Shown one piece after another: positions 5,441 to 6,576 of a stretch of DNA of 6,576 bases (within the stretch, counting starts at the first letter, position 1; each line of letters opens with the position of its first letter). The notes beneath the pieces are model-generated. The model made no database searches and was not told the DNA's origin. It was given only the letters and a program-made list of their open reading frames with translations. This DNA is from a virus, in the IMG/VR virus record IMGVR_UViG_3300027532_000102, positions 1-6,576 of that record, one strand, 5' to 3'. The position numbers were made by a program, and so were the translations under genes.

Positions 5441-5701
5441 TCATTCCGCGGCTGGCGGCACCAGACTGTCATCCAGTATCTTCTTCACTTCCATCCCGCG
5501 AATGTGCCGGTTCAGTCTGGCGATTTCCTCGGCCATGTTCTCCGCCTGGAGCTCGAGTTCCTGCACTCTCTTACGTAAGCGACTTGTCTCTTGGTTGTCC
5601 AGGTCGGCTTGGTTCTTCATCGTTCCCCACTTCTGCCGATATCGCCTTTGCGCCTCGCGGTTCTGCTGCCTTCGCTTCTCTACCATGGATGCAGTTCTCA
5701 T
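5441..5701 (-). CDS. bZIP-like basic-region plus leucine-zipper DNA-binding protein candidate, 86 aa
   Basis: GAGGG (5715-5711) is followed by 9 nt and then ATG 5701. Residues 9-24, KRRQQNREAQRRYRQK, fit the bZIP basic-region signature (N, x2, AQ, x2, Y, R, x, K, with N-x7-R spacing). Heptad d positions are L42, L49, M56, L63 and M70, with V46, A53, I60 and I67 at a positions. Confidence 0.7.
   Translation of the reverse strand: MRTASMVEKRRQQNREAQRRYRQKWGTMKNQADLDNQETSRLRKRVQELELQAENMAEEIARLNRHIRGMEVKKILDDSLVPPAAE
5569..5580. promoter_or_regulatory. ACGT-core palindromic motif copy 5: TCTTACGTAAGC
   Basis: The 10-mer TTACGTAAGC (5571-5580) is identical to 5431-5440, exactly 140 nt away. It lies inside the bZIP-like gene (codons S-R-L-R-K) and supplies the TAA stop of the overlapping ORF 5571-5852. 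Confidence 0.45.
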
Positions 5702-5852
5702 CGGTGCATTCCCTCACTGTCCACATGACCCACCGACCGGCGGCGTACTGGTGAGCCGCCTGCCTCGTCCCGAAGGGCCTATCCAGCCGCCGCAGTGTCC
5801 TCACCGGCCTGCGCGGCTCGTTGTTCCCTCCCCATATGTGCCAGTGCTTCAA
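5571..5852 (-). CDS. Hypothetical protein, 93 aa from TTG 5852; its 3' part overlaps the bZIP-like gene by 131 nt
   Basis: GGAG (5864-5861) is followed by 8 nt and then TTG 5852-5850, which overlaps the upstream stop TGA 5851-5849 (TTGA). It is the only open frame across 5702-5848 on this strand. The Trp/Arg-rich sequence KHWHIWGGNNEPRRPVRTLRRLDRPFGTRQAAHQYAAGRWVMWTVRECTDENCIHGR has no recognisable family. The true end is uncertain. Confidence 0.4.
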   Translation of the reverse strand: MKHWHIWGGNNEPRRPVRTLRRLDRPFGTRQAAHQYAAGRWVMWTVRECTDENCIHGREAKAAEPRGAKAISAEVGNDEEPSRPGQPRDKSLT

Positions 5853-5989
5853 TGTAGGTTCTCCGTTGTCGGCCACCTTCTGGCTACGTAGCGCAATGCG
5901 CTTTCGAATTCCGGCGAGTCGATGCCGTGGTGTTTGAGCATCGTCTTTAGGAAACCCCACAGGGACAGTCTTGTCTCTACGTCGTTCAC
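5849..5989 (-). CDS. Hypothetical small protein, 46 aa (possible helix-turn-helix, weak)
   Basis: GAGGAG (6003-5998) is followed by 8 nt and then GTG 5989-5987, which overlaps the upstream stop TGA 5988-5986 (GTGA). The product is MNDVETRLSLWGFLKTMLKHHGIDSPEFESALRYVARRWPTTENLH. The longer ORF-track version (to 6148) overlaps the upstream gene and lacks an SD. Confidence 0.5.
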   Translation of the reverse strand: MNDVETRLSLWGFLKTMLKHHGIDSPEFESALRYVARRWPTTENLH

Positions 5990-6168
5990 TCGTTGCACTC
6001 CTCTATGGTATGCATGAACTCCTTGAGCATGTACGACGTGTTGTATGCCTCGCGCGTTGCTTGGTCCTTCTCGTTGGTCGAGAACGACTGAAACGCCACC
6101 ATGTTCCAAGCGTGCGTGCTCAACGCTAGCTGCCTCAACTGCTGCCACTGCTCATTGGTCATGTTCAC
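5986..6168 (-). CDS. Hypothetical small helical protein, 60 aa; first gene of the leftward cassette
   Basis: GGGAGA (6181-6176) is followed by 7 nt and then GTG 6168-6166. ATG 6162 is an alternative start. The product is MNMTNEQWQQLRQLALSTHAWNMVAFQSFSTNEKDQATREAYNTSYMLKEFMHTIEECNE, with no family recognised. Confidence 0.6.
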   Translation of the reverse strand: MNMTNEQWQQLRQLALSTHAWNMVAFQSFSTNEKDQATREAYNTSYMLKEFMHTIEECNE

Positions 6169-6204
6169 TTGCCAATCTCCCTACGGGCGAATCCCGTATT
6201 GACA

Positions 6205-6233
6205 ATAGTAAAGGATTACATAAGCATAGTAAA
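6205..6233 (-). promoter_or_regulatory. Candidate sigma70-type promoter for the leftward cassette
   Basis: On the minus strand, TTTACT (6233-6228) is followed by a 17-nt spacer and TACTAT (6210-6205). It lies in the only AT-rich island of the genome. The predicted leader contains the hairpin TACGGG-cgaat-CCCGTA (6182-6198) just before the SD. Confidence 0.4.
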
Positions 6234-6427
6234 CCTAGTTCCACGAGAAACTGTGGCACAAAAACCACAACCCCCCTTGCCAAACCGCCTTTGAGCGTGT
6301 CCACATCCTCTCCCCGTCTCAAGCGAAGCGTCATTGACTGTGCATCCATCGAAACCAAGCGGCAGCGCGCGCGCGCCCTCCGGGCGCTAAACTCGTGCGA
6401 AGCACACCATCTGGTGCTTTCCCTTCC

Positions 6428-6457
6428 TTGACACCACAAAATCTAGTGTGCTACACC
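6428..6457 (+). promoter_or_regulatory. Candidate rightward promoter for the lipoprotein-rep operon
   Basis: A perfect -35 TTGACA (6428-6433) is followed by an 18-nt spacer containing an extended -10 TG (6449-6450), then the weak -10 TACACC (6452-6457, equal to 3-8). It spans the arbitrary linearisation point. Confidence 0.35.
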
Positions 6458-6576
6458 CGATACTCACCCGAAGGGCGGAGACCGCTTGCGGGCTCCGTTC
6501 ATGAGTAGCGGGACCAAACCTTTCTTCTCCACCGGAGACCTATGTCTATGCTCACCAAGGCAACACTTCTCAAATA
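6450..6576. repeat. Terminal direct repeat, copy 2 (assembly overlap; includes a duplicated 5' fragment of the lipoprotein CDS from 6542)
   Basis: Identical to 1-127. ATG 6542 corresponds to ATG 93, so this is not a separate gene. Confidence 0.95.

Follow-up and report, generated by a model that had tools for sequence, protein, structure and literature searches.

What does a virus of the Microviridae gain from a block of four small genes that it keeps on the strand opposite to all of its replication, structural and lysis genes? The question is raised by the IMG/VR virus record IMGVR_UViG_3300027532_000102, of which positions 1 to 6,576 were analysed (hereafter the window, meaning this whole stretch of 6,576 nucleotides, nt). 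The plus strand of the window carries the genes for replication, structure and lysis, and the minus strand carries, at positions 5441-6168, a cassette of four open reading frames (ORFs), m1 to m4. The last of them, m4, encodes a basic leucine zipper (bZIP)-type protein, and octamers that resemble the target of the fungal bZIP protein Pap1 are strongly enriched in the same genome. We propose that the cassette is a self-targeting transcriptional control operon, a reading to which we give a probability of roughly 0.65. In the order in which the minus strand is read, the cassette consists of the following genes, each preceded by a Shine-Dalgarno (SD) motif.

5986 to 6168, minus strand: m1, the first cassette gene, 60 amino acids, predicted to be helical; SD motif GGGAGA 7 nt before a GTG start.
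5849 to 5989, minus strand: m2, a 46-amino-acid orphan; SD motif GAGGAG 8 nt before a GTG start; GTGA overlap with the m1 stop codon.
5571 to 5852, minus strand: m3, 93 amino acids, a small conserved protein; SD motif GGAG 8 nt before a TTG start; TTGA overlap with the m2 stop codon.
5441 to 5701, minus strand: m4, 86 amino acids, bZIP-type, predicted DNA-binding; SD motif GAGGG 9 nt before an ATG start.

All four ORFs, their SD motifs and spacings and the two stop/start overlaps had been noted in a preliminary description made from the letters alone, and each of them is recovered here. The third junction, between m3 and m4, is a 131-nt overlap (5571-5701) and not a 4-nt one.

Are these ORFs genes? 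GC-rich genomes yield many long antisense ORFs, and the cassette could consist of chance antisense (shadow) ORFs in a GC-rich spacer, with the bZIP match of m4 as coiled-coil noise. The shuffle test is decisive against this explanation. SD-preceded ORFs that tile all 728 nt occur in none of 2,000 dinucleotide-preserving shuffles (at least four SD-preceded ORFs of any arrangement occur in 0.9%), and the minus strand opposite the plus-strand genes holds 0-2 SD-preceded ORFs per 800 nt. The GC content at third codon positions is 0.84 in m1, 0.68 in m2, 0.84 in the non-overlapping part of m3 and 0.69 in m4. The plus-strand ORFs that overlap the cassette have a flat or inverted GC pattern and look non-coding. 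The local strand skews flip at the cassette, where the minus strand is purine-rich and the plus-strand AT skew is about -0.35.

Codon usage was scored with a log-odds model that was trained on the plus-strand genes of the window and compared with 2,000 antisense controls. The claimed frame ranks first of six in every segment of the cassette. Both m1 (0.41 per codon) and m4 (0.26) lie above the 99th percentile of the controls, and m1 exceeds all 2,000 of them. Lower scores, as the shadow explanation would have it, were obtained for m2 (0.10, near the 95th percentile) and m3 (0.00), and within the m3/m4 overlap only the m4 frame looks coding (0.09 vs -0.31 for m3). Public gene calls on identical contigs (L003-L012; L numbers designate contigs and genomes throughout) include m1 and m4 wherever these are covered, m2 in 2 of 10 and m3 never, and the m3 of the window is thus absent from protein databases.

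A capsid search from the window led to a clade at 50-61% identity, and contigs were examined for twelve of its members. In distant relatives, orthologues of m3 and m4 share both the location and the strand, which upholds the earlier claim that the ORFs are real, coupled genes rather than shadow ORFs. In L020 (56% capsid identity), an m1-like gene (61 amino acids), an m3-like gene (58 amino acids) and a bZIP gene (108 amino acids) follow one another on the minus strand with 4-nt overlaps. In L018 (61% capsid identity), a bZIP gene precedes an m3-like gene, with locus and strand as in the window. Three further relatives (L019, L026 and L017, the last integrated in a larger contig) carry m3-like genes. 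Conservation in related genomes, which the preliminary description had made one of its touchstones for the cassette, thus holds for m3 and m4, extends to m1 as one weak orthologue and fails for m2, which lacks a homologue. Protein-level conservation is seen only in the claimed frames, across genomes with saturated synonymous sites, and the shadow explanation would leave about 1.07 kb of the 6.4-kb genome non-coding. It would fit the low bZIP score of m4 and its weak coiled-coil matches, and it conflicts with the L020 orthologue, which passes the bZIP threshold, and with cognate-site enrichment that tracks the presence of the gene. We therefore consider the shadow explanation to be already largely refuted and hardly credible. 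The computational evidence identifies the cassette as a genuine accessory operon whose four ORFs are coding-like and SD-preceded.

What kind of protein is m4? The preliminary description had mentioned a DNA-binding candidate in the cassette, and profile searches identify it as m4, a bZIP-type protein. Its basic region, EKRRQQNREAQRRYRQK, is followed by the heptad repeat L42/L49/M56/L63/M70. The bZIP signature N-x2-A-(A/Q)-x2-(C/S/F/Y)-R is present in m4 as RRQQ-N14-RE-A17-Q18-RR-Y21-R22, in the form that is typical of Pap1/Yap proteins (QN..AQ..YR), in which glutamine precedes the asparagine, Ala-Gln follows it and the residue in front of the arginine is aromatic. The basic region hardly varies among the three phage proteins (E8, R10, R11, Q12, Q13, N14, R15, A17, Q18, R20 and R22 are identical in all of them), and m4 finds its counterparts in L018 and L020 by tblastn with E values of 1e-7 and 6e-4, respectively. 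Among all Protein Data Bank (PDB) sequences, the best match of a profile built from the three proteins is fungal Pap1 (1gd2, E=2.4e-4), and the alignments of m4 to Pap1 and to 7aw7 support the basic-region signature. The L020 orthologue scores 31.3 bits against Pfam PF00170 (bZIP_1), above the gathering cut-off of 27.6 bits, and its leucine heptads stand in the canonical register (N12, R20, then L30, L37, L44 and L51), which calls for a first leucine 9 residues after the signature arginine on one uninterrupted helix. The AlphaFold2 (AF2) model of m4 is a single helix over residues 3-79 with a mean confidence (pLDDT) of 90.6. A lone helix carries little information for a fold search, and the one made with this model accordingly gave no match. 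The sole match of a word-index search was m4; scans of IMG/VR with m4 and with the bZIP alignment found no relative, and a tblastn search of 50,697 GenBank phage records with the bZIP protein gave no match. A role as a DNA-packaging protein like phiX174 J was considered for m4 and judged unlikely because of its strand, its zipper and the specific sites described below. The L018 bZIP protein (encoded at 1169-1504, minus strand) has the beginning of its basic region duplicated in tandem (EKRERRRLQNRE … EKRERRRQQNREAQRRYR).

Does the genome contain a target for such a protein? The DNA in the Pap1 structure 1gd2 contains TTACGTAA, which consists of two adjacent TTAC half-sites (PMC3111461). The window contains two exact copies of this octamer vs 0.02 expected, and none of 200 shuffles has at least two. 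Sites with at most one mismatch number 7 vs 0.44-0.72 expected, and 0 of 200 shuffles reach 7. The two other bZIP-encoding genomes, L018 and L020, have 7 such sites each vs about 0.7 expected (0 of 200 shuffles for each), and the enrichment of TTACGTAA-like octamers amounts to 10- to 16-fold in the three genomes. Among the 13 relatives that lack a bZIP gene, the number of sites ranges from 0 to 4 and is zero in 10 of them; only L002 exceeds expectation, with 4 sites vs 1.4 (P=0.04). In a rough tree of the capsid protein F, the three bZIP carriers are interspersed with non-carriers and form no exclusive clade, and the enrichment is therefore tied to the gene and not to shared ancestry. The regulatory role that the preliminary description had proposed is in this way backed by a strong and genome-specific enrichment of the predicted bZIP target. 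The seven sites of the window, followed by the control elements next to them, are these.

5431 to 5438, no strand assigned: exact TTACGTAA palindrome, a predicted operator, with 2 nt between it and the preceding m4 stop codon and another 2 nt to a hairpin.
5571 to 5578, no strand assigned: exact TTACGTAA palindrome within m4; its TAA is the m3 stop codon.
6216 to 6223: near-consensus site TTATGTAA (plus strand TTACATAA), in the spacer of the cassette promoter candidate.
2293 to 2300, no strand assigned: TTACGTCA, a predicted bZIP site at codons 22-24 (Leu-Arg-Gln) of the capsid gene F.
824 to 831, no strand assigned: near-consensus site TTACGTCA, inside the replication gene Rep.
3688 to 3695: near-consensus site TTACGCAA, inside a 336-amino-acid ORF.
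3971 to 3978: near-consensus site TGACGTAA, inside the same 336-amino-acid ORF.
5407 to 5428, no strand assigned: GC-rich 9-bp hairpin (GGGGGCUCC/GGAGCCCCC), located where the pilot-like gene (stop at 5377) and m4 converge.
6205 to 6233, minus strand: hand-picked, tentative cassette promoter candidate (TTTACT, 17 nt, TACTAT).
6169 to 6449, continuing at 1-92, no strand assigned: non-coding region of 373 nt between the divergent cassette and the lipoprotein-like and Rep genes.

The placement of the sites is suggestive of regulation. Upstream of the cassette, promoter-like pairs were picked by hand also in L018 (TTGCTT-17-TATGCT) and L020 (TTGCTT-17-CATAAT), and in all three genomes a predicted site overlaps the -35/-10-like pair. 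In L018 and L020, TTACGTAA or TTACGTCA covers the -35-like element, and the two genomes have the 15-mer CTTGCTTACGTCATC in common. At the other end of the cassette, the order of bZIP stop codon, TTACGTAA and GC-rich hairpin is found in L020 as well. Within F, the codons TGC TTA CGT CAG CAA (codons 21-25) are common to the window and L020, and TTA accounts for 3 of the 154 leucine codons in the plus-strand genes of the window. The other 10 relatives encode the same F motif ([L/V]RQQ) with other codon combinations that form no site, and L018 has TGACGTAA 58 nt upstream of F instead of an F-internal site. Predicted sites are thus found both in the upstream region of the cassette and at or near the start of F, where the operators of a repressor would be looked for, and the cassette promoters are hand-picked candidates.

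The hairpin has a folding energy of -25.5 kcal/mol on the plus strand and -22.3 kcal/mol on the minus strand (z-scores -3.9 and -4.2). Its equivalent in L020 was flagged as terminator-like on the plus strand, with a T-rich tail that enters TTACGTAA; a terminator scan left the hairpin of the window unflagged. It is probably a terminator, mainly for plus-strand transcripts. The ORFs in 6169-6449 have a non-coding composition, and the 373-nt intergenic region, judged by its divergent flanks, should hold divergent promoters. A block at about 6252-6283 in this region, with the minus-strand reading TTGGCAAGGGGGGTTGTGGTTTTTGTGCCACA, is conserved in L018 as TTGGCAAGGAGGGGGTGTTGTTTTTATACCACA, where it is also intergenic; it might be an origin or promoter element.

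Several points weigh against a regulatory operon centred on m4. The main reservation about the membership of m4 in the bZIP family is a 10-residue insertion, including Gly26, between its basic region and its zipper, which makes the register non-canonical; the L018 protein has an insertion of 11 residues in front of its zipper. The match of m4 to bZIP_1 (E=4.5e-5, 23.9 bits) lies below the cut-off, as does that of the L018 protein (21.7 bits), and m4 also draws weak coiled-coil matches. The known bZIP-bearing genomes are three only, and the similarity of their proteins is largely that of a basic region of about 17 residues. Several of the predicted sites fall inside coding sequence, and those in the 336-amino-acid ORF, when compared between the window and L020, are not on homologous codons. 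Scans for sigma-70 promoters in the three upstream regions of the cassette gave none above the threshold. Of the partner genes, m1 has just one homologue, a weak one, and m2 has none in any relative or library searched. Identical contigs are present in several read sets of the marine sponge Aplysina aerophoba, which a preprint describes as tissue layers of a single specimen. The ten public contigs that bear m4 are 100% identical to the window across the cassette, and one has 4 mismatches elsewhere. They include several libraries from one sponge specimen, and their invariant cassettes offer no variation from which a ratio of nonsynonymous to synonymous polymorphism (pN/pS) could be taken.

How close is the likeness to Pap1? 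The basic regions of Pap1 (KRKAQNRAAQRAFRKRK), m4 (EKRRQQNREAQRRYRQK) and the L020 protein (ERRRQQNRDAQARFRRRQ) resemble one another, a heptad leucine repeat on one continuous helix in Pap1 has its counterpart in the predicted helix of m4, and the octamer of the Pap1 structure is the one that is enriched in the phage genomes. Unlike Pap1, m4 is an 86-amino-acid stand-alone protein of a bacterial virus without activation or redox domains, it shares with the L018 protein the pre-zipper insertions described above and a score below the Pfam threshold, and it would have to act on bacterial RNA polymerase. Such a likeness raises the question of whether m4 is an effector that was acquired from a eukaryote and acts on the transcription of the sponge or another eukaryote, comparable to the ankyrin proteins of sponge-symbiont phages. 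The sponge holobiont as the source, the proximity of the basic region to the fungal Pap1/Yap type and the lack of a bZIP relative in the phage records and IMG/VR would agree with this idea. The m4 sequence has no signal peptide or secretion signal, the gene is embedded in an SD-coupled operon of bacterial type, and the predicted sites are concentrated in the phage genome itself; we consider a eukaryotic target most improbable.

In the self-targeting control operon that we favour, the replicative form would serve as template for the cassette, whose transcription would diverge from that of the lipoprotein/Rep unit and whose translation would be coupled. We infer that m4 would dimerise and bind TTACGTAA-like palindromes on the double-stranded replicative form. 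Bound to the site in its own upstream region, m4 would autoregulate the cassette, and through the hairpin-adjacent site and the sites in or near F and other plus-strand genes it would damp or time the expression of plus-strand (late) genes. Because no way is known in which a bZIP protein could activate bacterial RNA polymerase, steric repression or a roadblock is its most likely mode of action. The products of m1, m2 and m3 would be co-translated partners. The outcome for the life cycle could be an early/late switch, a carrier state or immunity.

Is the cassette a lysogeny or carrier-state immunity module? According to this alternative, which is a more specific version of the favoured explanation and not its opposite, m4 would be a repressor like CI or RstR that silences the lytic genes, which would let the phage persist as a prophage or an episome, and that excludes superinfecting relatives. 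A divergent cassette on the opposite strand, with a DNA-binding protein and operator-like sites upstream and in late genes, is what such a module would look like. There is also a precedent among single-stranded DNA phages. In CTXphi, all genes except the regulatory one point in one direction, the divergent repressor gene rstR adjoins the intergenic control region, as the cassette of the window does, and the phage integrates through XerCD/dif. The differences are that CTXphi belongs to the Inoviridae and the window to the Microviridae, that RstR is a helix-turn-helix protein and m4 is of the bZIP type, that the window lacks a dif-like site and that its cassette has four genes.

Integration of the dif type is seen in a relative. 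A 159-kb metagenomic contig contains L017, an integrated microvirus of this clade. On its two sides stand a perfect dif-like sequence, GGCGCATAATGCGTTTTATGTTAAAT, and a copy with a degenerate XerD arm, 6,100 nt apart (3569-3600 and 9669-9699), which is the pattern expected of XerCD/dif capture. L017 keeps a homologue of m3 on the minus strand. A temperate or carrier lifestyle is thus possible within the clade and is not demonstrated for the window genome. L017, the sole integrated relative, has neither a bZIP gene nor bZIP sites. The window has no integrase domain in any ORF and no dif-like site, in line with what the preliminary description had remarked, and no dif-like site or integrase is found in L018, L019 and L020 either. 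In two scans for prophages, none of 185,579 GTDB species-representative genomes yielded a relative of this capsid clade. Three contigs of 15-29 kb (L021, L022 and L027) were considered as prophages and rejected, because they proved to be concatemers, in which a genome of about 6 kb is repeated head to tail; their names suggest long-read assemblies. The host flanks of L017 encode cadherin-like, haemolysin-type calcium-binding and ankyrin-repeat proteins. With no prophage relative in these scans and no homology to anti-defence or defence proteins, the lysogeny, immunity or anti-defence reading of the preliminary description is not established, and we regard the lysogeny or immunity module as possible and on balance unlikely. 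Still bolder is the idea that a Pap1/Yap-like bZIP protein of eukaryotic type crossed domains into the phages of sponge-associated bacteria, or arose in them independently, and now serves as the master regulator that holds a microvirus in a non-integrated carrier state. We put it forward as a long shot; if it is true, m4 would be the first bZIP protein known to act on bacterial transcription and the basis of the first regulatory switch in the Microviridae.

What do the partners of m4 contribute? The most widely conserved cassette gene is m3, as judged from its homologues. Its conserved core, about 62 amino acids at 5667-5852, ends near 5667-5680, about where m4 begins, and its C-terminal tail (5571-5666) is not conserved; m3 overlaps m4 (5571-5701) in a frame that looks non-coding. 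The core has the motif HxH(I/V)W ... RP(F/Y)xTRQAAH ... Cx4C, and the N-terminus (M)KHWHIW matches MTKHFHIW of L020. A tblastn comparison of m3 with L018 gives E=4e-15, and an m3 profile matches L017, L018, L019, L020 and, weakly, L026. The family members have about 60-75 amino acids, shared motifs and a position on the minus strand after the pilot gene, and those of the L017 type lack the cysteine pair. The conserved histidines and cysteines make a metal-binding site (HxH/Cx4C) possible, as a guess. The profile finds 11 clusters among 1.84 billion representative proteins, all of them small or unannotated and none with a Pfam domain; a tblastn search of the GenBank phage records with m3 found no match. 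The AF2 model (pLDDT 79) has a beta-beta-alpha-beta-alpha layout. A WGR- or DUF2188-like fold, suggested by the motif, found no support in the searches. The profile and structure searches that the preliminary description had called for thus assign m4 to the bZIP proteins and m3 to an unnamed family, and yield no informative match for m1 and m2.

A third possibility is that the cassette serves host takeover or anti-defence, with m1-m3 acting on the RNA polymerase, the defence or the cell cycle of the host and m4 regulating host promoters or the cassette only. Weak resemblances link the m3 model to many uncharacterised phage proteins of small size and to the small epsilon subunit of RNA polymerase, and the locus is hypervariable, with unrelated small minus-strand ORFs in L001, L002, L022, L025 and L027, a turnover that is typical of accessory or counter-defence loci. 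The fold search with m3 gave no significant match (best E-value 0.1), searches for its function in Pfam, PHROGs, NCBIfam and PADLOC found nothing, and those with m1 and m2 in databases of this type were equally uninformative. No cassette protein matches an anti-defence, defence or known takeover family, and the sites of m4 are enriched within the phage genome itself. A takeover cassette is accordingly an improbable reading, and the transcriptional control operon remains the one that we prefer.

For m1, an alternative start codon (ATG at 6162) would give a protein of 58 amino acids. Its weak syntenic homologue is the first gene of the L020 cassette, which has a similar length (pairwise E=0.001 over the N-terminal 24 amino acids). 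The least certain of the four cassette ORFs is m2.

In what genome does the cassette reside? An exact terminal repeat of 127 nt (positions 1-127 equal 6450-6576) marks the window as a complete circular genome of 6,449 nt. The plus-strand genes are the following.

93 to 371, plus strand: lipoprotein-like ORF, 92 amino acids, with a signal peptide and a lipobox-like cysteine (…LPMTSC), just 5' of Rep.
368 to 1678, plus strand: Rep (PF23343, 30.3 bits vs a cut-off of 27.8; phrog_713).
Ending at 2165, plus strand: D-type external scaffolding protein (PF02925, 31.6 bits vs a cut-off of 25).
2230 to 3555, plus strand: F-type capsid protein (PF02305, 53.6 bits vs a cut-off of 25).
3555 to 4565, plus strand: 336-amino-acid ORF.
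4589 to 5377, plus strand: pilot-like protein.

The PHROG matches agree with the Pfam calls for the capsid, scaffold and Rep proteins. The F capsid, the D-type scaffold and Rep, together with the small circle, place the window among the microviruses of the external-scaffold lineage (phiX174/pequenovirus-like, suborder I). In GenBank, F comes closest to the capsids of phiX-like phages and Eel River Basin pequenoviruses, with which it is about 22-24% identical. With the phiX174-like Bullavirinae and these pequenoviruses the window shares an F capsid, a D-type scaffold and Rep, all above the Pfam cut-offs; it differs in having about 0.73 kb of minus-strand genes, whereas all of their annotated genes share one strand. 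When the window was compared with the 50,697 phage records at the nucleotide level, no match emerged, an Rfam scan gave no meaningful RNA family match, and capsid scans of IMG/VR and the JGI metagenomes yielded only distant or fragmentary relatives.

The preliminary description had stated that the family normally codes on one strand. This statement holds for the classical microviruses and the annotated GenBank pequenoviruses; in the present clade, minus-strand genes are common. Of the 14 relatives examined whose genomes are complete or nearly so, 10 have such genes in the stretch from the pilot gene to Rep; L021 and L028 have none there. In this clade, the pilot-Rep stretch is, from these comparisons, a variable accessory locus that is usually read from the opposite strand, and the window has the longest minus-strand version among the relatives seen (about 0.73 kb).

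Microviruses are textbook-minimal viruses. They are thought to have all genes on one strand and very few accessory genes, and to depend on the strength of their promoters and terminators instead of on regulators of their own (PMC9239249). Those of suborder I are described with methyltransferases and lysis enzymes as accessory genes and with no transcription factor (Kirchberger et al. 2022; PMC9239249). The literature searched describes no transcription factor, bZIP protein or antisense operon for the Microviridae. The cassette is a predicted phage regulatory cassette around an unusual regulator, in a family with none previously known. If this prediction is true, some microviruses regulate the expression of their genes, and possibly their lifestyle, in a way that annotation practice hides; at least one pipeline for prophage curation strips microvirus predictions of genes on the opposite strand (PMC9753089). 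The bZIP fold counts as essentially eukaryotic, and a survey lists uncharacterised Pfam bZIP_1 matches in prokaryotic proteomes (PMC7017128). The compact phage version would come with a testable predicted operator, TTACGTAA, and m4 would offer a simple system for studying how a bZIP protein meets bacterial RNA polymerase and from where the phage protein came.

An antisense-encoded bZIP protein is known from another kind of virus. HBZ of the retrovirus HTLV-1 is encoded opposite the structural genes and modulates viral transcription. Unlike m4, it is the spliced product of a eukaryotic retrovirus and works through bZIP partners of the host, and no evolutionary link is implied.

Some minor observations concern the remaining genes and relatives. 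Lipoprotein-like ORFs stand at the equivalent place in L018, L019, L020 and L022 (tblastn vs L022, E=5e-6), and L017 has an Amidase_2 gene where the others have this ORF; the product of 93-371 may be a lysis or exclusion lipoprotein. L002, at 39-41% capsid identity, has at the cassette locus a 185-amino-acid minus-strand ORF (657-1214) with the motif HPPCRGYS and no Pfam match; the motif bears a tentative resemblance to the PPC motif of cytosine methyltransferases. The sample labels PASC20, JAHN19 and SATO17, found among the relatives L020, L025, L028 and L029, are, to judge by their form, perhaps those of sponge or coral virome studies. Within Rep, in another frame, lies an overprinted plus-strand ORF of 130 amino acids (1189-1581) that the gene callers left uncalled on the public contigs of the window. 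It is conserved with a called 127-amino-acid gene of L022 (E=9e-15), and both products have the C-terminal sequence IPPRGERIL. In phiX174, gene B, which encodes the internal scaffolding protein, lies within gene A, and the ORF at 1189-1581 occupies the matching place.

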